Positions 20,540 through 29,605 of a stretch of 64,000 bases of DNA are shown here, piece by piece. The DNA is from Candidatus Heimdallarchaeum aukensis. GTDB lineage: Archaea > Asgardarchaeota > Heimdallarchaeia > Heimdallarchaeales > Heimdallarchaeaceae. The stretch covers positions 1,440,001-1,504,000 of the forward strand of contig CP084166.1 of NCBI GenBank assembly GCA_021513695.1, given 5' to 3'. The translations under genes were made by a program, and so were the position numbers. Numbering within the stretch: position 1 is the stretch's first letter; the number at the start of each line of letters is the position of its first letter. The notes beneath the pieces were generated by a model. The model saw nothing but the letters and a program-made list of their open reading frames with translations. It made no database searches and had not been told where the DNA came from.

Positions 20540-20660
20540 TTTCTCTTCAAATATTGTATAGCATTATCTTTTTTAATTCTTGGTTTTAATTAAAAGATTG
20601 ATTTTTTTCAAAAATCGTAAAAATGTTTATTATCTTTCATACGTAAATAAATTGGATAAT

Positions 20661-22931
20661 ATGGTAATACAAGAAGAGAGTAAGGACATCATAGAAGACT
20701 CACCTTTTAACCGCCTTGTTCTTGCAGAAATGGAGAGAGAACGACTTTACTCTACATTTGCTTTAGTTGACGAATTTAATGAAATTGCGTCTTCATGGTT
20801 AGAATTTTCAGATTTTTGTGCAAAATCATTATTTAATTTAACAAATTTATCATTTCTTCTCTATGAGCGGTATCTTGATGAATTTAATAGAGATAAGCAA
20901 CAAATAGAGATAAATTTTGAACGTAAAAGCTTCATTATTAAGAGAATAGAAAATCTGCAACAATTCCAAATGGAAGCAGCTATTTTAATGATTCTCTATG
21001 CAGATATTGTTAACACAGGCATTTTTGAGTCTAAACCTGCAGAAAATTTTTGTTATTTAAACATTGAAGGATATAAGGTTCTTGAGAAAATCTCTTCTAC
21101 ATATTTCGATTCTACTCATCCCAGGGCCTCATCAATTGAAGATATTATGGTAAAGTTATTTACAATAAGTCAAAAAGTCCAAATTGTGAAGATACTAAAT
21201 GATTCGCCAATTAAAAAAGCAAAAGAACCATCTTTTATTCAAGAACAACTTGAGTTGGAAAGATTATTAGCAAGTTTTGAGTTTGATTTTATTGCTAAGT
21301 TAATAGAAGAACTCGGAAAAAGATGGTGGTGGTATGACCCAATTGCAATACATTTTAGCTATGAAAGAGCAATGAAACACTTAGAAAAATCTCTTTCCCT
21401 TTTAGAACATAGTGAGGAAAATGTTCTACAAATTAAAGAAGAAATTAAAAATAAGATCTCAACAATAGATAAAATTTGGAGAAATAAAGCACTAATTGAT
21501 CACTTTTATAGAATCACATTAGAAGCAGCTAAAAAAGACAACTTTGTTGCAAGCATCGAATACCTAAACTTAATTTTAGGATTAATCGATGAAATCATTG
21601 AATATTTTCAAAACAATAATGAACATTTAGAAAGCGAAGAACAATTTTATGAAGAAATAGAAGAACGTAAAAACGATTTAAAAGTTTTTCATATTGTTGT
21701 CAGACTAGCTCTTTCTGTAGCTGAAATCATAAACAAACAAACCTCAATAGATAAAGCATTGTTAGAAAAAAAACTTACAGAAATAGAAAAAATATGCAAA
21801 GATTCTTCATTGTTTTCCAATATAAATTACTTCTCTGAAATTATTTATGTTTATCAAGGCTTTGTTCAAACAGCTAGAATTGGTATACTGAAGAAACAAA
21901 AAACAGAGAAAATCTTGAATAATGCAATAGCACAATTTGAATACTATATAGTCAAACTTGAGAATAGTTTAACAAAAATTGCTAATGATTTTTATAAGAA
22001 AGTCCATAAAGGGACGCTAAAAAGTACTGATTTTAAAAATTACTTAAAAAAGATTGAAGAGTTAAAGTACATCAGTTTCTTTTTACCTAACTTAGAACAA
22101 AAACTCAATCTTACACGAGAAATAGAGTCAATGGAATGTTATATTAAATCAATAGCTGCATTAAAACAGTCACAATCCCAAGAGTTGTCTGAAATTGAAA
22201 AACTCATCTATTATTCGAAAGCACACTATTTCTCAAATAAAGCTTTAGATTTGTCTCAAAGTAAGGAAAAAGCCATAATTCCTGACAATTGGCTTGAAGA
22301 GCAGTTCCTTAAAACTTTCACTGAAGGGAGAGAAGTCGAGTTAAAACTTTTTGAATTATCACGTCAATTTCTTTTTCTAAATAAAGTAATAGATGAAATT
22401 GCTTATTGCTTTGACATTTCAGAAAAAAAGAAAGAAAAAATTGAAAATTATGAGACAGTTCTTCAATTTCACTTTAGAAAATTTGAACTCTTTGAAATCA
22501 TTAACAAACAGATAGAAGAAAATTGTTTAGAATCCCTGAAATACAGAGAAATATCAAATGATATTGTAATTGTAGATAAAAACGTCAATTGGCAAATTAT
22601 TGAAGCTAAAAAAATATTGGCATCTTCAGCAGACAAATTAATCAAAGCACTTAAAAAATGCGCCCTTGGTTATGCAGCAGATAGAAGTAAAGACAACTAT
22701 AAAGCAGCTGTTTTATTTAATGAAGGTTATAAGCTGGTTCAGGAAGCATGTAATATTTTAGACCCACTAACTACATATGACAAACAATTTGCTGATTTGG
22801 CAAAAACAACTTACGAATTCAATTTGTTTCTAAAGGAACTTGAACGTTTGGAACTTGAGAAGAAAAAAATAAAAGAATTTCCTCTAGAAAAAGTGTTGTC
22901 TCTAGTTAAGAAAATAATTTTCTTTTCGTAA
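20661..22931 (+). CDS. large all-alpha hypothetical protein (about 756 aa)
   Basis: ORF 20580..22931, trimmed to the first ATG at 20661. It is K/E/L/I-rich with helical-repeat-like composition. I recognise no catalytic motif. Confidence 0.55.
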   Translation: MVIQEESKDIIEDSPFNRLVLAEMERERLYSTFALVDEFNEIASSWLEFSDFCAKSLFNLTNLSFLLYERYLDEFNRDKQQIEINFERKSFIIKRIENLQQFQMEAAILMILYADIVNTGIFESKPAENFCYLNIEGYKVLEKISSTYFDSTHPRASSIEDIMVKLFTISQKVQIVKILNDSPIKKAKEPSFIQEQLELERLLASFEFDFIAKLIEELGKRWWWYDPIAIHFSYERAMKHLEKSLSLLEHSEENVLQIKEEIKNKISTIDKIWRNKALIDHFYRITLEAAKKDNFVASIEYLNLILGLIDEIIEYFQNNNEHLESEEQFYEEIEERKNDLKVFHIVVRLALSVAEIINKQTSIDKALLEKKLTEIEKICKDSSLFSNINYFSEIIYVYQGFVQTARIGILKKQKTEKILNNAIAQFEYYIVKLENSLTKIANDFYKKVHKGTLKSTDFKNYLKKIEELKYISFFLPNLEQKLNLTREIESMECYIKSIAALKQSQSQELSEIEKLIYYSKAHYFSNKALDLSQSKEKAIIPDNWLEEQFLKTFTEGREVELKLFELSRQFLFLNKVIDEIAYCFDISEKKKEKIENYETVLQFHFRKFELFEIINKQIEENCLESLKYREISNDIVIVDKNVNWQIIEAKKILASSADKLIKALKKCALGYAADRSKDNYKAAVLFNEGYKLVQEACNILDPLTTYDKQFADLAKTTYEFNLFLKELERLELEKKKIKEFPLEKVLSLVKKIIFFS

Positions 22932-22975: not shown

Positions 22976-23824
22976 ATGAATAGTTTTCTGCTAAACGATG
23001 AGGAAAAAAAACAAATACTTTCTAAATACACAGAATTCTCATCTTTACGAGGTGAACCAAATAAAGAATTAGATCAATATTTTGTAACGCAAGATACTAG
23101 TTTAAAGAGAGCCTTGCTATTTGAACCAGAAGAATACGAAAGTAAGTGGGTTATTTTTCTAGGAGATATGGATCTAGTAGGTTTTCACTTAGGATTATTA
23201 GCAAAACCTAAGGACTTAGCGGTACTTGATATTGATAAAAGAATGCCAGAAATGGTTTTTTCAATGAAGTTTAACTACAAAATTAGATCAGCTCGATATA
23301 TTAACCATGATTTAAGAATAAGGATGTTGGCAGTATTAAAAAATCAATATGATTTTATTTTCACAGAATCACCTATGACAATTGAGGGCAATGAAGTTTT
23401 CCTTTCTCGCGCTGTACAATGTGCAAAAAAAGACGGTAATAGTAGAATAATATTGTCAACAGATGTTAAAGATGAAAAACGAGATGAGTTATACTCACTT
23501 TTTGATCAAATGAATCTTGAAGTTGAGCAACATATTAAAGACTTTAACAGCTACTCCTTTGAGACTGCTTTAGGCAAAAAGAACTCTGATTTATTCATCC
23601 TCCGCGTTTTAGAAAATTCAAAAGAGAACATAGTCAATCACTATTTAGGCCCAATGTTTTTCAGAGAGATAGAACAAGAAACAAAACCATATAGATGTAA
23701 ATGTGGGAATATCATAGAAGTAGGGAAAGATGTGTCTTCATTAGATGAACTATACGAAAAAGGTTGCCCTGAATGTGGTCATAAAGAAGTATTTGTTTAC
23801 AACTCTTCAATTAAATTAGAGTAA
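22976..23824 (+). CDS. DUF43-type (BpsA C-terminal-domain-like) methyltransferase-fold protein with a C-terminal zinc ribbon
   Basis: It has VIFLGDMDLVGFHLG, VLDIDKRM, HDLR, YDFIFTESPMTIEGNEVFLSRA and then CKCG...CPECGH. The pattern matches the DUF43 aminopropyl/methyl-transferase fold. Confidence 0.55.
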   Translation: MNSFLLNDEEKKQILSKYTEFSSLRGEPNKELDQYFVTQDTSLKRALLFEPEEYESKWVIFLGDMDLVGFHLGLLAKPKDLAVLDIDKRMPEMVFSMKFNYKIRSARYINHDLRIRMLAVLKNQYDFIFTESPMTIEGNEVFLSRAVQCAKKDGNSRIILSTDVKDEKRDELYSLFDQMNLEVEQHIKDFNSYSFETALGKKNSDLFILRVLENSKENIVNHYLGPMFFREIEQETKPYRCKCGNIIEVGKDVSSLDELYEKGCPECGHKEVFVYNSSIKLE

Positions 23825-23828
23825 ATTA

Positions 23829-24182
23829 GTGAGAAATATGACTCAAGTTCAAACAGAAACAAGATGCGCAAATTGTGATAGGGTAATTAAGCTAACTCCA
23901 GAAATTTTAGAATCAGGTTGTCCAGATTGTGGTTCGTTTAAATTTATAACCAAAAGGATTTTAACAGATTTGGAGAAACAACAAAAAGAAGTAAAGGTCT
24001 TGATAGATAAAGAAATGAGAGAAGAAGATATTACAAAAGATATATCTTCTATAAGACTGAGTACTGAAGGGACATTTGAAATTGATTTAGAGAAACTGCT
24101 CGAAGAAGTAACTGAAAACAAGCCTATAATAACAAGAAATAAGGACGGAACCTATCATGTCAAGTTCCCTGAAAAAAAATAA
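23829..24182 (+). CDS. small zinc-ribbon protein with a charged helical tail
   Basis: 117 aa (GTG at 23829; alternative ATG at 23838). It has RCANCDRV...GCPDCGS followed by a K/E-rich segment. It may belong to the archaeal Zn-ribbon-containing family (DUF2072-like), which I have not verified. Confidence 0.5.
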   Translation: MRNMTQVQTETRCANCDRVIKLTPEILESGCPDCGSFKFITKRILTDLEKQQKEVKVLIDKEMREEDITKDISSIRLSTEGTFEIDLEKLLEEVTENKPIITRNKDGTYHVKFPEKK

Positions 24183-24266: not shown

Positions 24267-24932
24267 ATGGTCGCTAAAGATCAACTTGATAAGGAAGATA
24301 GAATAAAAAAGGGAGTAGAAGAGATTCTAAGCTTCAGAGGATATGAAATTAAAAAAATAAATACAGATGATGATTATATTGATTTTTACGCTGAAAAAAC
24401 TGATGAAGACGGAGAAGAAACAAATTTAATTGTCAGATTTCCTAGAAAAGCGAGCATAGGAGTAAAAACAATAAGAGAACTTGATCAATATAGAAAAGAT
24501 GAAGATATTCAAGATGCAATAATTATAGCAGAAGGAGCTTTAACTCACTATGCAAAAAGAGAATGTTTAGAACGAGGAGTGGAAATAATAAGTGGAACAA
24601 ATCCCCTTTTTAATATCTTTGATCACATAATGGTTCCACTTCATATAAAACTTGAAGATGATGAAGTTGAAGAAGTTTTAAAGAAATATCAAATAAAGAA
24701 GCATCAATTGCCAAAGATCCTAGACTCAGACCCTGCGATTAAAGCTATTCAAGCAAACCCAGGAGATATAATAAAGATAATTAGAAACCCAAACATGGGA
24801 GAAGCAGGAGTATATTATCGATATGTTATCAGATCTACATCAAGATTAAGGCTAGCAGCAAAAACTCAACGCTCCTCTTTAGAAGAAGAAGTTGTAGAAG
24901 ACATAGAAGAAGATATAGAAGAAGAACTTTAG
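24267..24932 (+). CDS. rpoH: RNA polymerase subunit Rpo5/RpoH with a eukaryote-type Rpb5 N-terminal domain and an acidic tail
   Basis: The C-terminal core (HIMVPLHIKL..., HQLPKILDSDPAIKAI, PGDIIKIIR, YYRYVI) matches the RpoH/Rpb5 C-terminal domain. The N-terminal ~120 aa (RGYEI, IVRFPRKASIGVKTIREL, AIIIAEGALTHYAKR) parallel the human/yeast Rpb5 N-terminal domain. Confidence 0.85.
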   Translation: MVAKDQLDKEDRIKKGVEEILSFRGYEIKKINTDDDYIDFYAEKTDEDGEETNLIVRFPRKASIGVKTIRELDQYRKDEDIQDAIIIAEGALTHYAKRECLERGVEIISGTNPLFNIFDHIMVPLHIKLEDDEVEEVLKKYQIKKHQLPKILDSDPAIKAIQANPGDIIKIIRNPNMGEAGVYYRYVIRSTSRLRLAAKTQRSSLEEEVVEDIEEDIEEEL

Positions 24933-24963: not shown

Positions 24964-25042
24964 CTTTCTTAAAAAAAGTAAAAGAAGAAATGTGATTTGT
25001 TTTTCTGAAAGATTTATTACATCCTTCTTTTCTTTTCATTTA

Positions 25043-25984
25043 ATGAAAGAAAAAGGTAAAATTGTTTTTTTAGGTGGTGGTACAGGAACACCTAAACTTA
25101 TACAAGGGATTAGGAGAATTATTAATGAAGAGAATATCACTGTAATTACCAATACAGCAGATGATATAACTCTTTATGGTTTATATATATCTCCAGATGT
25201 AGATACATATCTTTACCTTTTTTCAAATTTACTTGACACTAAAAAATTCTGGGGTATAGAAGGAGATTCTTATTATACTTATTCATTTCTAAAGAAATTC
25301 GACAAAAATGCTTGGTTCACTTTGGGAGATAAAGATTTAGCTATCCATCTCTTTAGAACACAAAAACTTCAAGAAGGGAAGAACCTTTCAGAAATAACAA
25401 CTATCTTAGCCAATCGTTTAAATATAAAAGCAAAAATTTTACCATGTACAGATAATCATATAGAAACAAGAATTGTTACAAAAAATGGCCATGACATTCA
25501 TTTTCAAGAGTTTTGGGTACGCGAAAAAGCAAACTTATCTATTAAAGAAATATATGTTAAGGGAATAGAAAACGCGATTATTCCTGATGATATTTTTAGC
25601 GAAATTGAGGAAGCAGATAAAATTATTTTAGGTCCTAGCAATCCAATAACAAGTATCGGTCCGATAATTTCGATAAAAAAAATTAGACAGTCATTAAAGA
25701 AAAATAAAGAGAAATGCATAGCTATTAGTCCTATTGTTGGAGATAGGGCAATAAGTGGACCTACATGTCAATTTCTTGCAACTAAAAACAAAAATTGCTC
25801 AATAAAAGATATAATTTCCCTTTATGAAGATTTTATTACATGCTTTTTTATTGATGAGTCTGATAAGAACATAGAAGAACAAATTAAAAATATCTATCCA
25901 AATTTAGATATTCGAAATGAAAATATAGTAATGAAAGATATTAGTATCTCACAGAATTTAGCAAAAACATTGCTTAAGGTGTAA
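25043..25984 (+). CDS. cofD: 2-phospho-L-lactate transferase (LPPG:FO transferase)
   Basis: ORF 24992..25984, trimmed to the Met at 25043 (MKEKGKIVFLGGGTGTPKLIQG). It also has NTADD, LGDKDLA and ILGPSNPITSIGPI motifs of the CofD family. Confidence 0.85.
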   Translation: MKEKGKIVFLGGGTGTPKLIQGIRRIINEENITVITNTADDITLYGLYISPDVDTYLYLFSNLLDTKKFWGIEGDSYYTYSFLKKFDKNAWFTLGDKDLAIHLFRTQKLQEGKNLSEITTILANRLNIKAKILPCTDNHIETRIVTKNGHDIHFQEFWVREKANLSIKEIYVKGIENAIIPDDIFSEIEEADKIILGPSNPITSIGPIISIKKIRQSLKKNKEKCIAISPIVGDRAISGPTCQFLATKNKNCSIKDIISLYEDFITCFFIDESDKNIEEQIKNIYPNLDIRNENIVMKDISISQNLAKTLLKV

Positions 25985-25986
25985 AA

Positions 25987-26775
25987 ATGGAAATCTCTCC
26001 ACCTATTATTCAATCTGCATTAGCGGGATATACAACACCATCATTCATTCAATCAATATTAGATAATGGTGCGGGTATGGCTACATTTGGAGGTTATTCT
26101 TTAGATAAATTAACAAATGAGGGATCAACTGAAATAATTAAGAGAAATAGAAAAGAGATTTTACTCCCACGAGATGAAACTGAATTTCAAAAGTGGTGCA
26201 ATCTAAATTTAAATGTAAAAAAAAGTTCAGATAAACAATTAATTGCAATTAATTTACGAATATCTAAAATAGACCAAGAAACTTTAAGAAAAATAAATTT
26301 TTTATCAAACTTTATTGATATTATAGAATTAAATGCTCATTGTAGACAGAAAGAAATTGTAGAAAGGAGAGGAGGAGAGTATTTACTCAAAGATATTAAT
26401 CATTTAGACTACATACTAGAAAAAATCAGAAAAACTTCTCCAAATGATAAAAAGATCGGGATAAAAATCAGAGGTTACATTGTAAAAGACCAACAAAAAC
26501 TAGTGAATGTTCTTGAATCAAGATCTGTTGACTATTTACATATTGACTGCATGGAACCTGGAAAACCCTATGCAAACTTAAAAATACTAAAATCTTTTTC
26601 TGAATTAACAGATATCACTTTAATTGGAAATAACTCTGTTAGAAATGTAAAAGATGTTCAACAAATGATTGATGCAGGAGCTTCTGCTGTTTCAATCGCA
26701 AGACCTTTAATTACTAACCCTAGTTCTATCAAAAGGTTAATATCAGAATGCAAAAACAAAGGAATTCTAAAATGA
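25987..26775 (+). CDS. Dus-like (dihydrouridine-synthase/DHOD-like) FMN TIM-barrel protein
   Basis: The pattern parallels the Dus family: SALAGYTTPSFIQSILDNGAG, IELNAHCRQKEIVERRGGEYLLKD, IGIKIRG, LHIDC and LIGNNSVRNVKDVQQMIDAGASAVSIARPLITNP. It starts 2 nt after the cofD stop and its TGA overlaps the cofC ATG. Confidence 0.6.
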   Translation: MEISPPIIQSALAGYTTPSFIQSILDNGAGMATFGGYSLDKLTNEGSTEIIKRNRKEILLPRDETEFQKWCNLNLNVKKSSDKQLIAINLRISKIDQETLRKINFLSNFIDIIELNAHCRQKEIVERRGGEYLLKDINHLDYILEKIRKTSPNDKKIGIKIRGYIVKDQQKLVNVLESRSVDYLHIDCMEPGKPYANLKILKSFSELTDITLIGNNSVRNVKDVQQMIDAGASAVSIARPLITNPSSIKRLISECKNKGILK

Positions 26776-27377
26776 CCAAGACAGCATTCCTCATTCCATA
26801 TAAAGGAACAAATAAAGCAAAAACCAGATTAAGAAGAAAACTTAATGGAGAAGTTGTAGATAAACTCCTTTTTCGTCTCTTCGGAGCGGTAATTCAAGAA
26901 CTATCAGAAATGAAAATAGAAAAGTCTATATACATCTTAACAAAAAACTCTAATCTTCTTCTTAATGAGAATTGTATAAAAATAGTTGACAAAAAAGATG
27001 ACTTTAATGAAGCTATTGTTGAAGCTGTTAAAGATCTAAGTGAAGAAAATATCATAATCATCATGGCTGATCTTTACAAAATTAAAAAAAAAGAGATTAG
27101 ACGAATTATTAAATTAAGAAAAAAGTATTCTGTGGTTATTGCACCCTCAGAAAATGATGGAACTAGCATTTTTGCATTTTCTAAAAAATTACTTTCTGAA
27201 ATAGAATTCTGTTTTGGAAATAATTCTTCATTAATATTTGAAAAACAATTTAAGCAAAAAGGAATAAATTATTTTAAATTACGCTATAAGAATGTTTTTA
27301 AGGATATAGATAACCTTGAAGATATTCTTAGTATAAAAAAATTAGCAAAAGAATTAAACTTATTCAACAAAAATTAG
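26772..27377 (+). CDS. cofC: 2-phospho-L-lactate guanylyltransferase
   Basis: ORF 26748..27377. The ATG at 26772 forms an ATGA overlap with the upstream stop. It has AFLIPYKGTNKAKTRL and MADLYKI/DGTSIF features of the CofC/FbiD nucleotidyltransferase family, and it lies in a cofD operon context. Confidence 0.7.
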   Translation: MTKTAFLIPYKGTNKAKTRLRRKLNGEVVDKLLFRLFGAVIQELSEMKIEKSIYILTKNSNLLLNENCIKIVDKKDDFNEAIVEAVKDLSEENIIIIMADLYKIKKKEIRRIIKLRKKYSVVIAPSENDGTSIFAFSKKLLSEIEFCFGNNSSLIFEKQFKQKGINYFKLRYKNVFKDIDNLEDILSIKKLAKELNLFNKN

Positions 27378-27386
27378 GGATAAAAG

Positions 27387-28532
27387 ATGAAAGAAAAAAT
27401 AGAAAGAGTACAACAGGTTCTAAAAAAACATGAAGTAAATAGTTGGATTGTATTCTGTCACCATGGTTACGACATTCACAGTAAATATTTACTAGAAAAA
27501 AACATTACATCAGCCACTTTTATCATGATTAAGCAGGAAAATAAACCCATTGTTATCACCTCTCGAATGGAAGCTATGATGATCAATAATGATGTATATG
27601 ATGTTATAGCCTATAAAACTCGTAACGAATTAATAGAATTATTAAAAAATTCTTTATCTGGTCTCGAAGATGGGAAAAAGATAGCTATAAATTATGTACC
27701 AAAAGATAATTTACTAGATAATTTTTCTATGGATATTCTTCCTGCAGGAACATATGAATTCTTAACTTCGATGAATAATAATATAAATTGGGTTTCAGCT
27801 AAAGATATCATTAGAGATGTCCGCAGTGTCAAAACAAAAAAAGAAATTGAAAATCATAAAATTGCAGCTAAACTAGCTGAAGAGTTAATGGAAGAAGCTG
27901 TAGAGCAGAAAATTAAACCTGGAATGACTGAAAAAGAAATTAAAGCACTCATTGAATACGAATGTAATAAGCGAGGAGGAATAGCCTTTGAAGCAATTGT
28001 AGCTTCTGGTGCAAATTCTGCTATACCTCACCACCATGCTTCTAAAACTAAAATCAAAGAAAATCAAGTTTTATTAATAGATTATGGGGTTTCCTATAAT
28101 TGGTCAAACAGCGATATAACAAGAACTTATTGGATAGGGAGTAATCCTCCTGAAGAAGTCTTAAGAGCTTATGAGGCAGTTGATGCAGCGAAAGAGGCTG
28201 CTTATAAACATATTAAGGCAGGAGTTTTCGCTTCAGAAGTTGAAAATGCGGTAAGAGAAACAATGAAAGAATTTGGCTTCGATCCTGAAAAATATTTTAT
28301 CCATTCTACTGGCCATCCTTTAGGTATAGAAACACACGATATAGGTGTAGGAATATACAAAGCTTCAGAATCAGTAGCTGATAAACCTCTAATAGAAAAT
28401 TCTGTAGTAACCGTTGAACCTGGCCTATATTTCGAAGGAAAATTTGGGATCAGACTAGAAGATGATTGTGTGGTTACAAAAGACGGTAGCATAAGATTAT
28501 CAAATACTCCAAAAGAGATTATTACCCTTTAA
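27387..28532 (+). CDS. M24 family Xaa-Pro peptidase
   Basis: Pita-bread metal-ligand pattern (LLIDYGVSYNWSNSDITRT, HSTGHPLGIETHD, VEPGLY, IRLEDD). Confidence 0.9.
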   Translation: MKEKIERVQQVLKKHEVNSWIVFCHHGYDIHSKYLLEKNITSATFIMIKQENKPIVITSRMEAMMINNDVYDVIAYKTRNELIELLKNSLSGLEDGKKIAINYVPKDNLLDNFSMDILPAGTYEFLTSMNNNINWVSAKDIIRDVRSVKTKKEIENHKIAAKLAEELMEEAVEQKIKPGMTEKEIKALIEYECNKRGGIAFEAIVASGANSAIPHHHASKTKIKENQVLLIDYGVSYNWSNSDITRTYWIGSNPPEEVLRAYEAVDAAKEAAYKHIKAGVFASEVENAVRETMKEFGFDPEKYFIHSTGHPLGIETHDIGVGIYKASESVADKPLIENSVVTVEPGLYFEGKFGIRLEDDCVVTKDGSIRLSNTPKEIITL

Positions 28533-28635: not shown

Positions 28636-29250
28636 TTGTCTTGGAAAACTTGGTTAAAAAGTAAACCCAAACATATTAAACTTGGATTTTATGGGGAAGT
28701 AAATGCCGGGAAGACAACGTTAGCAAATGTTATGGGGATGGATTGGGCAGGACAAGAAGTGGGAAAAGTTTCTGAAATCCCTCACGAAACTAGAGAAATT
28801 GCAAAACTAGAAAAAGTTGATTTTAATGTGGATGGGACAAAAATAGATTTAACTTTAATAGATATGCCAGGTATAGCTACAACAGTTGACCCAAAATCAT
28901 TTGTTAATTATGGATTAAGTGCTGGAGAAGCTATGCAAAGAGCTAAAGAAGCAACAAGAGGAATAGTAGAAGCTATCAAGTATTTAGAGCAAGTTGATGT
29001 TGCACTTGTAGTATTAGATTCTACAAAAACACCATTTGATCAAGTTAATTTTACTATTCTTGGGAACTTAGAACATCAGAAGAAGCCATTTATTATTGTC
29101 CCAAACAAAATAGATTGCCCTGAATCAGATGTAAAAACAGTGCAAGAAGCCTTTGGTGATTATGAAGTTGTACCTATCTCTGCCTTGAAGAAGGAAGGTA
29201 TTGACAAACTCTATGATAGTATTGCAAAATTAGCTAAAAAGGTGAAATAA
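28636..29250 (+). CDS. small P-loop GTPase
   Basis: G1 is GEVNAGKT, G3 DMPG, G4 PNKID and G5 SALK. 204 aa with a TTG start. Confidence 0.8.
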   Translation: MSWKTWLKSKPKHIKLGFYGEVNAGKTTLANVMGMDWAGQEVGKVSEIPHETREIAKLEKVDFNVDGTKIDLTLIDMPGIATTVDPKSFVNYGLSAGEAMQRAKEATRGIVEAIKYLEQVDVALVVLDSTKTPFDQVNFTILGNLEHQKKPFIIVPNKIDCPESDVKTVQEAFGDYEVVPISALKKEGIDKLYDSIAKLAKKVK

Positions 29251-29251
29251 A

Positions 29252-29605
29252 ATGTCTTACAGTGTTGATTTTATTCCAGAAGATGAAACGGGTAGGTTTT
29301 CATTAGTTGAAAAAACCAGATATATTCTCTCTCAAGTCATGCGAAATAAAATTCTTATTTTAGAAAATGCACTCACTCCAGAAGAAGAATTATACTTAAT
29401 CGAGAAAACTATGAATAAGATAGATTATAGTAACTTCGTTGGAATCAAGCTTTTCTCATTTGATTCAGGAGAAGAAAACAGATTCTCAAAAATATTCGGC
29501 AAGTCATCTAAAAAACGGTCTACTTACACTATTGTGGCTCCAAATGATGCAGTTTCTGTTGTAAAAGATGAAAGAGGGATTTTATCAATTAGAATTAATG
29601 TTTAG
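29252..29605 (+). CDS. conserved archaeal small protein coupled to the GTPase (DUF2073-like, unverified)
   Basis: 117 aa, starting 1 nt after the GTPase stop. It has an ILILENALTPEEELYLIEKTMNKID motif that I associate with an archaeal family found next to GTPases. Confidence 0.5.
   Translation: MSYSVDFIPEDETGRFSLVEKTRYILSQVMRNKILILENALTPEEELYLIEKTMNKIDYSNFVGIKLFSFDSGEENRFSKIFGKSSKKRSTYTIVAPNDAVSVVKDERGILSIRINV

Follow-up and report, generated by a model that had tools for sequence, protein, structure and literature searches.

A candidate flavin-dependent reductase of archaeal F420 tail biosynthesis encoded between cofD and cofC in Candidatus Heimdallarchaeum aukensis

In the genome of Candidatus Heimdallarchaeum aukensis a gene for a small protein with an FMN-type barrel, termed X in the following, is tightly packed between cofD and cofC. 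The evidence leans, by a modest degree, towards X being an FMN-dependent C=C reductase of archaeal F420 tail biosynthesis and not an RNA-modifying enzyme, and X would appear to be the best available candidate for the missing archaeal step which supplies the lactyl group.

F420 has a central part in methanogenesis and anaerobic methane oxidation as well as in antibiotic biosynthesis and prodrug activation, and work is under way to engineer its pathway into E. coli and yeast. A 2-phospho-L-lactyl linker joins the deazaflavin FO to the glutamate tail of the cofactor. The bacterial route leads from PEP to dehydro-F420-0, which is then reduced by a nitroreductase-fold FbiB domain (FbiE). Archaeal CofE is devoid of an FbiB-type reductase domain, and the question where archaea obtain the phospholactyl group has expressly been named as unsolved (Bashiri 2019; Grinter and Greening 2021; Pfeiffer and Dyall-Smith 2021). 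A lactate kinase named CofB has been postulated and was never found, and a 'CofX' was postulated by Bashiri et al. 2019. In published assays cognate archaeal CofC/CofD pairs prefer 2-phospho-L-lactate (2-PL), for which they are highly specific. The 'Ca. H. archaeon' of Hasan et al. 2022 was considered as an assayed Heimdallarchaeon and discarded, as the supplement gives Hydrothermarchaeota; it is the general statement on archaeal pairs alone which applies here. A search of the literature for a link of X or its family (MJ0144) to F420 yielded no publication.

Gene arrangement around X

The stretch of DNA analysed, called the window below, comprises 64,000 nucleotides, and the features of the locus are collected in Table 1. 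The original prediction had described X as packed between its neighbours with an ATGA overlap towards cofC and with a cysteine in an IELNAHCR block, and its coordinates and all these details hold when re-read from the sequence. The TAA of cofD occupies 25982..25984 and the ATG of X begins at 25987, while within the ATGA at 26772..26775 the TGA of X (26773..26775) overlaps the ATG of cofC (26772..26774). The IELNAHCR block lies at residues 113-120 and its cysteine is Cys119. Both neighbours were assigned from profile scores, cofD with 315.8 bits for TIGR01819 (cutoff 257.45) and 174.5 bits for PF01933, cofC with 70.5 bits for PF01983 (GA 22) and with 94 bits for TIGR03552, which is under the cutoff of 105. 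Alternative starts are a GTG at 24992 for cofD and an ATG at 26748 for cofC. Alignments of homologues favour 25043 and 26772, and since the genes stay coupled with either choice the coupling is unaffected. The isoelectric points of X (9.3) and CofC (9.6) are uninformative.

Table 1. Features of the cofD-X-cofC locus, given in positions of the window
Feature	Position	Strand	Remarks
cofD (LPPG:FO 2-phospho-L-lactate transferase), 313 aa	25043..25984	+	TIGR01819, PF01933
AGGTG, Shine-Dalgarno-like, within cofD 3' end	25977..25981	+	5 nt before X start; putative function
X, 262 aa, single-domain FMN-type (beta/alpha)8 barrel, MJ0144/'archaeal Dus' family	25987..26775	+	candidate reductase of the F420 side chain, enolpyruvyl to lactyl
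X active-site motif I-E-L-N-A-H-C-R-Q, residues 113-121	26323..26349	+	Cys119 codon 26341..26343
cofC (2-phospho-L-lactate/PEP guanylyltransferase), 201 aa	26772..27377	+	PF01983; ATG overlaps X stop

The survey of gene neighbourhoods covered 80 genomes, the best of at least 598 with a match. Directly upstream of X cofD was found in 17 of 17 Heimdall loci, which are not independent counts because they have wider synteny in common, and in 12 of 12 other Asgard loci (29/29 assessable). The gene downstream of X was cofC in all 28 assessable Asgard loci, and within the Asgard cofD-X-cofC unit the stop codon of one gene frequently overlaps the start of the next. In four Asgard loci, from Baldr- (L018), Jord- (L070) and Freyarchaeia (L079) and in L056, the order extends to cofE-cofD-X-cofC. 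CofE of the Asgard operons is a single-domain protein of 248-251 aa (TIGR01916) with no FbiB-type reductase attached. Methanobacteria have the order cofE..cofD-arfA-X in 31 of 33 loci, with cofD one gene away from X; arfA encodes GTP cyclohydrolase III, the first step to the FO/riboflavin precursor. In Halobacteria cofD adjoins X in 6/6 loci and the overlap persists even where the other neighbours differ. All adjacent CofD proteins which were tested score above the equivalog cutoff of TIGR01819. No cofD was seen near X in Methanocellales (0/4), Methanoperedens (0/7) and Archaeoglobi (0/1; 0/12 together). Downstream of X in Methanobacteria come the gene for MCR component A2 (atwA) and then 'methanogenesis marker 9', which makes other methanogen-specific roles conceivable; in one locus of Methanocellales (L048) atwA is located upstream of X. 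The marker 9 domain is Cys-rich and in methanogens it is either fused to X or encoded nearby, fusions being frequent in Halobacteriota. A marker-9-like Cys motif was detected neither in the 64-kb window nor in Asgard or haloarchaeal loci, and atwA was not seen at the Asgard and haloarchaeal X loci.

The arrangement cofD-X-cofC is thus more than chance, as the order recurs in all assessable Asgard loci and cofD-X in two further phyla. Co-localisation with cof genes over distant lineages, by which members of the F420 tail set are recognised, applies to X as well. The original prediction had proposed to check whether relatives of X are linked to cofC and cofD in other genomes, and the linkage it had seen in a single locus is borne out in three phyla. 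It is not exclusive, since X also adjoins methanopterin-type genes in Halobacteriota, which could not be seen from the window.

All named sources of X, as judged from the best 120 protein matches and from the 80 best genomes out of at least 598, are known or predicted F420 producers, namely methanogens, Methanoperedens, Archaeoglobi, Halobacteria and Asgard archaea with cof genes. In Heimdallarchaeia X appears to be present without genes for H4MPT biosynthesis.

Family, motifs and predicted fold

Judged from profiles, motifs and tree position X belongs to the MJ0144 family (TIGR00736), which corresponds to the subfamily named 'archaeal Dus' by Kasprzak et al. 2012. TIGR00736 is the top match of X, with an E-value (4e-49) over 40 orders of magnitude better than that for DusB; the score of 167.1 bits stays under the curated cutoff (218.7), which the Methanobacterium orthologue passes with 265.7 bits. 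The Asgard branch is divergent and has 26-37% identity to methanogen and haloarchaeal members. In a neighbour-joining tree X falls inside the MJ0144 clade, separate from the Dus proteins of 300-350 aa, and it has the NAHCR and HID motifs and the barrel-only architecture of about 250 aa which are diagnostic for this family. A phylogeny against bona fide archaeal Dus had been suggested by the original prediction; X does cluster apart in the tree, but a separate group of bona fide archaeal Dus does not exist, as the MJ0144 family itself is what the literature calls 'archaeal Dus', a name derived solely from homology. The Pfam Dus profile (PF01207) matches X with 35.8 bits (GA 20.4), which places it among the Dus catalytic domains, over just positions 80-232 of a profile 311 positions long; the Methanobacterium orthologue reaches 68 bits. 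Membership in the DHOD/DPD group was rejected because the score for DHO_dh (PF01180), 26.0 bits over the last 60 residues alone, lies below the GA of 27.

Structure prediction yielded a confident model (pLDDT 96.8) with a single (beta/alpha)8 barrel, the closest solved folds of which are the catalytic domains of Dus enzymes. From both the model and the structure comparison X has no counterpart of the C-terminal helical tRNA-binding domain of Dus. In family alignments of 41 and 82 members no variation is seen at E114, H118, C119 and Q121, and none or almost none at N116 and R120. When aligned to human Dus2 C119 of X falls on C116, the catalytic cysteine, and N116, K160, R162 and H185 align with catalytic residues as well. 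Three changes from the Dus motifs, glycine to histidine, proline to arginine, and the arginine of HxR to Asp187, are invariant family-wide. The hallmarks of 'archaeal Dus' are the motifs NxHC[K/R] and HxD, with substitutions at highlighted positions (Kasprzak 2012). Invariant arginines and histidines specific to the family (R55, R91, H118, R120, and R239) would suit an anionic phospho-carboxylate substrate.

Proposed role and competing explanations

In the proposed reaction X would supply the saturated lactyl group from the PEP-derived enolpyruvyl group. Reduced FMN would give a hydride to the enolpyruvyl methylene carbon and Cys119 would protonate C2. Analogous chemistry on the C5=C6 bond of uracil is catalysed by Dus, DHOD and DPD. 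The substrate may be dehydro-F420-0, the product of CofD, which would make X a non-homologous replacement of FbiB-C/FbiE and thus 'CofX', or it may be free PEP, which would be converted to 2-PL for CofC. Since archaeal CofC/CofD pairs prefer 2-PL, the reduction of PEP is considered about as likely for X as that of dehydro-F420-0; the specificity of these pairs argues against the dehydro-F420-0 variant and not against the PEP variant. In methanogens the electron donor would probably be the marker 9 domain. White's group reported that lactate is phosphorylated in extracts in a GTP-dependent manner, which suggests that the pathway does not strictly depend on a reductase. The proposal is supported by the cof linkage in three phyla with differing flanking genes, by the single-domain Asgard CofE, and by the occurrence of X solely in F420-producing lineages within the 80 genomes surveyed out of at least 598 and within the best 120 protein matches, and the confidently predicted barrel with its aligned Dus catalytic residues would fit the chemistry. 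Points against it are the methanopterin-type neighbours in Halobacteriota, the 12 loci in which cofD is absent nearby, and the MCR component A2 and marker 9 genes in Methanobacteria. To the wider reading that the whole MJ0144/TIGR00736 family is the missing archaeal F420 lactyl-linker enzyme, reducing PEP to 2-PL or dehydro-F420-0 and not modifying RNA, we give an even chance.

The methanopterin-type neighbours raise the question whether X might be a pterin side-chain reductase, acting for instance in the reductive step, to which no enzyme is assigned, from the ribofuranosyl-aminobenzene intermediate to the ribityl compound, with its proximity to cofD reflecting operon clustering of cofactor genes. 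CitG-like and DUF447 genes directly follow X in Halobacteria (L084, L087, L090), Archaeoglobi (L086), Methanocellales (L048, L062) and in L091, where DmrX (TIGR02700, 292 bits) and an MptH-like gene (TIGR00284, 307 bits) also come after X. In methylotrophic bacteria CitG-like and DUF447 genes are presumably part of the gene islands for H4MPT; when such islands were sought among plasmids via DUF447, haloarchaeal replicons were the sole matches. This association is however restricted to one phylum, Halobacteriota, and it breaks where cofD-X holds: in Natrinema X and CitG-DUF447 have three genes between them, yet cofD and X overlap, and two loci (L088, L089) have cofD-X only. In Asgard and Methanobacteria loci CitG and DUF447 are not nearby and X is flanked by cofD plus cofC or arfA. 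Haloarchaea moreover are reported to be without methanopterin-specific enzymes and to use tetrahydrofolate, yet X is strongly conserved in them. A methanopterin-type role is regarded as unlikely.

Somewhat less credit still is given to X being a genuine tRNA dihydrouridine synthase, a minimal archaeal form which binds tRNA without the helical domain and for which the position in a cof operon is meaningless. The significant Pfam Dus matches, the nearest solved folds and the conserved catalytic Asn, Cys, Lys and His would fit such an enzyme, as would its classification in the literature and the presence of dihydrouridine (D) in some archaeal tRNAs (Kasprzak 2012). Against it stand the missing helical domain, which accompanies the barrel in the matched Dus structures, the motifs altered where Kasprzak et al. 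highlight them (NxGCP to NAHCR and HxR to HxD), the cofD/cofC/cofE linkage kept in three phyla, and the Cys-rich domain fused to or near X in methanogens. The tRNA of H. volcanii is without D, whereas haloarchaea keep X at 65-80% identity (2310 hits, the best 120 of which are from Haloferacales genera other than that of H. volcanii). In hyperthermophilic archaea D is rare or absent; X was found in a Methanopyri MAG (L027). The literature holds no experimental demonstration of D synthesis by the MJ0144 family.

Improbable, and the least favoured, is a place of X at some other point of deazaflavin or flavin metabolism or in a process of the methanogen type, be it on a uracil-like FO/riboflavin intermediate, as a redox partner of CofD or CofE, or in MCR maturation. 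It would agree with arfA standing between cofD and X in Methanobacteria, with the uracil-type rings on which Dus, DHOD and DPD all work, and with the atwA and marker 9 genes near X in Methanobacteria and, for atwA, in L048. To our knowledge every redox step in the archaeal riboflavin/FO branch already has an assigned enzyme. Riboflavin is universal, whereas X occurs only in F420 producers among the matches listed. A role in the riboflavin branch was rejected, since no redox step there is known to lack an enzyme and the phyletic pattern of X among these matches disagrees with it. Non-methanogenic Asgard archaea and haloarchaea carry X in loci devoid of the marker-9 motif and atwA, which speaks against a methanogen-type process.

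Implications and comparison with known systems

As the locus names a concrete candidate, the question of the archaeal phospholactyl origin becomes directly testable: X and its relatives are proteins of about 250 aa which are easily expressed. If X is the lactyl-supplying reductase, the CofB/CofX gap, open since about 2001, would be closed, and a reduction of PEP to 2-PL would be a previously unknown reaction. The only supposed Dus of Archaea would be removed and with it the inference of Dus in LUCA, which would change how the evolution of Dus enzymes is seen, and the marker 9 domain would become the electron-input module of X. Confirmation would also correct thousands of archaeal annotations as 'tRNA-dihydrouridine synthase' or 'dihydropyrimidine dehydrogenase' and would make available a compact component for producing F420 in heterologous hosts, which would then need neither the FbiB reductase domain nor 2-PL feeding.

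Compared with established Dus enzymes (COG0042, PF01207; T. maritima TM0096, 1vhn; E. coli DusB, 6ei9; T. thermophilus Dus, 3b0v), to which the helical C-terminal domain belongs, X carries an additional loop with an invariant RGRxEF besides its altered motifs and is embedded in F420 operons. The best match, the MJ0144 family, has identical diagnostic substitutions, although the Heimdall score is under its cutoff. Class 1A DHOD and the Old Yellow Enzyme ene-reductases differ from X in their substrate-binding loops, and X is smaller than the latter. FbiB-C/FbiE of Actinobacteria and Chloroflexi performs the FMNH2-dependent enolpyruvyl reduction of dehydro-F420-0 which may be the reaction of X, and in both cases the gene adjoins, or is fused with, genes of F420 tail synthesis. 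As a nitroreductase fold is found in FbiB-C/FbiE and a TIM barrel in X, the relation would be one of analogy and not of homology. The hypothetical L-lactate kinase CofB addresses the same gap in the pathway, the supply of 2-PL; CofB was postulated as a GTP-dependent kinase, whereas X, which has no kinase-like features, would form 2-PL by reduction of PEP.

The cofD-X-cofC unit and its surroundings

In the window, which belongs to a Heimdallarchaeial (Asgard) chromosome and has a G+C content of 31.5%, a gene for a 262-amino-acid TIM-barrel protein of the flavoenzyme type, here called X, lies between cofD and cofC. The positions of the three reading frames, the ATGA overlap and the motif I-E-L-N-A-H-C-R were read from the sequence as in the original prediction; the motif occupies residues 113–120 of X. 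An identical copy of the protein is annotated in the databases for Candidatus Heimdallarchaeum aukensis as 'tRNA-dihydrouridine synthase'.

Genes in and around the cofD-X-cofC unit (positions in the window)
Feature	Position	Strand	Remarks
783-aa reading frame	20580..22931	+	syntenic 754-aa gene in Heimdall locus L003 without Pfam match
BpsA_C-domain gene	22976..23824		downstream of the 783-aa frame
OapC-like gene	23829..24182	+	Zn-ribbon-type CxxC pairs
RNA polymerase subunit H	24267..24932	+	221 aa; directly 5' of cofD
cofD	25043..25984	+	TAA stop 25982..25984; TIGR01819 315.8 bits, over equivalog cutoff
X	25987..26775	+	AGGTG 5 nt 5' of ATG; TGA stop shared with cofC start
cofC	26772..27377	+	ATG overlaps X TGA (ATGA, 26772..26775); PF01983 70.5 bits; TIGR03552 94 bits, slightly below cutoff 105
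M24 peptidase	27387..28532	+	Xaa-Pro dipeptidase/creatinase-like; starts 9 nt past cofC stop
small GTPase, then OapB-family gene	28636..29605	+	GTPase of MMR_HSR1 type

The M24 peptidase gene stands next after cofC in 18 loci of Heimdall and one of Borr and is possibly co-transcribed with it; its connection to F420 is not obvious. The arrangement of GTPase, OapB and OapC-like genes is kept in other Heimdall loci (L001, L003). The subunit H protein combines an RpoH/Rpb5 C-terminal domain (PF01191, 89.8 bits) with an N-terminal domain that resembles Mrr_cat/restriction-endonuclease-like models and gives a weak match to RNA_pol_Rpb5_N (23 bits, below GA 27). This two-domain Rpb5 architecture is eukaryote-like and occurs at further Asgard loci, those of Sif and Borr among them (neighbour cluster 24).

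Family, fold and active site of X

The best NCBIfam match of X by far was TIGR00736, 'MJ0144 family RNA dihydrouridine synthase-like protein' (E 4e-49), with 167 bits against a curated cutoff of 218.7. The DusB model reached E 4e-6 and the Pfam Dus model matched weakly, with 35.8 bits over profile positions 80–232 of 311. Identity as a DHOD was discarded, the score being under the DHOD threshold. By its sequence X falls within the MJ0144 family, as a divergent member. An exhaustive search with the profile through 1.84 billion representative proteins revealed a small family, with 35 representatives at E<1e-30. A few dozen members are complete proteins of about 250 residues that consist of the barrel alone, some are extended C-terminally to about 370, and classical Dus of 300–350 residues match the profile in their C-terminal half only (E about 1e-15 or weaker).

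An AlphaFold2 model from an 82-sequence alignment was very confident (pLDDT 96.8, pTM 0.93) and predicted a single (beta/alpha)8 barrel without an additional domain. In a profile alignment with human Dus2, N116, C119, K160, R162 and H185 superposed on the catalytic Asn, Cys, Lys, Arg and His of Dus. These five residues are invariant or nearly so among 41–82 family members, as are the family-specific R53/R55/E57/F58 (RGRxEF), R91, E114, H118, R120, Q121, D187 and R239. X carries exactly the substitutions that define the 'archaeal Dus' subfamily of Kasprzak et al. (2012), with Gly to His and Pro to Lys/Arg in NxGCP and Arg to Asp in HxR. Later work took M. jannaschii Q57608 as its representative, and a 2026 paper calls the group 'not well-characterized to date'. 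The name rests purely on homology. A phylogeny against bona fide archaeal Dus had been suggested in the original prediction; in a neighbour-joining tree classical Dus stood apart from the MJ0144 family, with X in a Heimdall clade of the latter, but since this family is itself the 'archaeal Dus' of Kasprzak et al., no separate archaeal Dus exists for comparison.

Genomic neighbourhoods of the X family

A scan of GTDB species genomes for the motif E[IL]N[AV]HCRQxE of the family gave matches in 598 genomes or more. The neighbourhood analysis covers the best 80 of these loci and 11 others from encoding-contig look-ups and one plasmid search. Reading frames were called and searched with HMMs built from CofD, X and CofC of the window, and all neighbours were clustered. 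With cofD counted on the same strand within 2.3 kb upstream of X, it was present in all 17 assessable loci of Heimdallarchaeia, 12 of 12 of other Asgard archaea (Baldr, Borr, Sif, Hod, Jord, Frey, unclassified), 31 of 33 Methanobacteria, 6 of 6 Halobacteria and the one Halobacteriota MAG (L091) bearing methanogenesis marker 9, and in none of those of Methanocellales (0/4), Methanoperedens (0/7) and Archaeoglobi (0/1). Within 2.5 kb downstream, cofC followed X in all 28 assessable Asgard loci and in no other lineage among the loci examined. In L074, a further locus from a Heimdallarchaeota bin6 chromosome, cofD was located upstream by tblastn and a run of N right after X (L074:10738..10837) hides the cofC region. 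In four Borr, Sif or unclassified Asgard loci (L019, L020, L021, L026) X and cofC are separated by two genes on the opposite strand; one is isocitrate/isopropylmalate dehydrogenase-like, and the other encodes a small protein whose C-terminal domain is MsvR-like (V4R-type).

Four Asgard loci (L018, L056, L070, L079) carry cofE-cofD-X-cofC on a single strand, with a single-domain CofE of 248–251 residues (TIGR01916, 322 bits in L018 and 290 bits in L070, the two examined with this model). The order in Methanobacteria is cofE .. cofD-arfA-X, arfA encoding GTP cyclohydrolase III (PF05165, 381 bits), which takes the first step to the pyrimidine precursor of FO and riboflavin; in M. jannaschii the gene beside MJ0144, MJ0145, likewise encodes ArfA. 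In each of the six haloarchaeal loci cofD overlaps X or lies directly against it; this holds for two that otherwise share no neighbours and for Natrinema, in which X precedes three unrelated genes. All four X-adjacent CofD proteins tested scored above the TIGR01819 cutoff. As the wider region is syntenic within Heimdallarchaeia, the loci of this class amount to about one observation. The flanking genes differ between phyla, with RpoH and M24 peptidase in Heimdall, LplA in Hod, atwA in Methanobacteria and HD-domain genes in haloarchaea, and the cofD-X linkage is therefore not one inherited block. Co-localisation of the subfamily with cofC/cofD across archaea, the test put forward in the original prediction, was thus borne out, for cofD in three phyla, and supports the reading of X as a putative ene-reductase of the F420 side chain.

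A methanogenesis marker 9 domain (TIGR03277, 153–165 bits), with eight cysteines and two CCxxxKxC-type motifs, forms a C-terminal fusion with X in Methanocellales, Methanoperedens, Archaeoglobi and L091. In Methanobacteria (L022–L085; for example L024:10865..12938) X is followed by atwA, encoding MCR component A2 (TIGR03269, 888 bits), and a stand-alone marker 9 gene (187 bits). A motif search found no marker 9 motif in the window, the Asgard loci or the haloarchaeal loci. Marker 9 is read as a probable metal or Fe-S electron-input module, and would then be a counterpart of the Fe-S proteins that work with DHOD-B and DPD.

Candidate roles of X

Architecture and residues of X are those of flavoenzymes whose substrates have a C=C bond in conjugation with a carbonyl or carboxylate; they reduce this bond with a hydride from N5 of FMN and a proton from an active-site cysteine. 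From this resemblance X is proposed to be an enolpyruvyl reductase. How archaea come by the lactyl group is a documented gap, the enzyme making 2-phospho-L-lactate (hypothetical CofB) never having been identified. [quoted passage not shown] 2019). Cognate archaeal CofC/CofD pairs proved highly specific for 2-phospho-L-lactate, re-establishing it as the likely archaeal starting point (Hasan et al. 2022).

A genuine tRNA Dus, as the annotation has it, is disfavoured. X shares the catalytic residues, but its motifs are altered relative to Dus and it sits inside cof operons. A tRNA Dus is by structural definition a two-domain protein, and the barrel-only X, which is without the helical tRNA-binding domain, falls outside this definition. 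Dihydrouridine is absent from H. volcanii tRNA, yet haloarchaea conserve X strongly, the 120 best matches lying in other genera of the Haloferacales; dihydrouridine is rare or absent in hyperthermophilic archaea, yet X occurs in a Methanopyri MAG (L027) and, by family name, in M. jannaschii. A role in methanopterin-type biosynthesis, a pathway in which one reductive step is not known to have an assigned enzyme, is suggested by a CitG-like and a DUF447 gene which in Halobacteriota (Halobacteria, Archaeoglobi, Methanocellales) often come right after X. They form a tight pair adjoining X in L084, L087, L090 and L092 (Halobacteria, with haloarchaea said not to make methanopterin among them), L086, L048/L062 and L091, where DmrX (dihydromethanopterin reductase, TIGR02700) and an MptH-like protein (TIGR00284) follow. 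Such a role is nevertheless unlikely. The link is confined to one phylum and missing from Asgard and Methanobacteria loci, whereas cofD-X spans three phyla and persists through rearrangements which break X-CitG-DUF447. Haloarchaea, reportedly without methanopterin-specific enzymes, keep X at 65–80% identity (2310 matches at E<1e-20).

F420 production is the sole property common to all lineages seen with X. On balance X is probably, if by no means securely, the enolpyruvyl reductase of archaeal F420 biosynthesis, which would reduce the enolpyruvyl unit of the side chain. It may act on dehydro-F420-0, after CofD, or on free PEP before CofC, giving 2-phospho-L-lactate; the two are weighted roughly equally, and EPPG would be a less likely substrate. 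Dehydro-F420-0 is slightly favoured because cofD, sometimes with cofE, is the most widely conserved link of X, and PEP because of the CofC/CofD specificities in the literature and because 2-phospho-L-lactate has been detected in methanogens. PEP reductase activity, if true, would be a new reaction.

The gene family is already known, and still carried a Dus-like name in NCBIfam (June 2026); no link between it (MJ0144) and F420 was found in the literature. What would be new is the function assigned to it. With one small protein as the candidate, a gap in F420 biosynthesis that is of long standing and explicitly stated becomes directly testable. X would be a functional equivalent of the nitroreductase-fold FbiB C-terminal domain and FbiE of bacteria without being homologous to them, and its proposed action resembles that of the DHOD-1A- and OYE-type ene-reductases.
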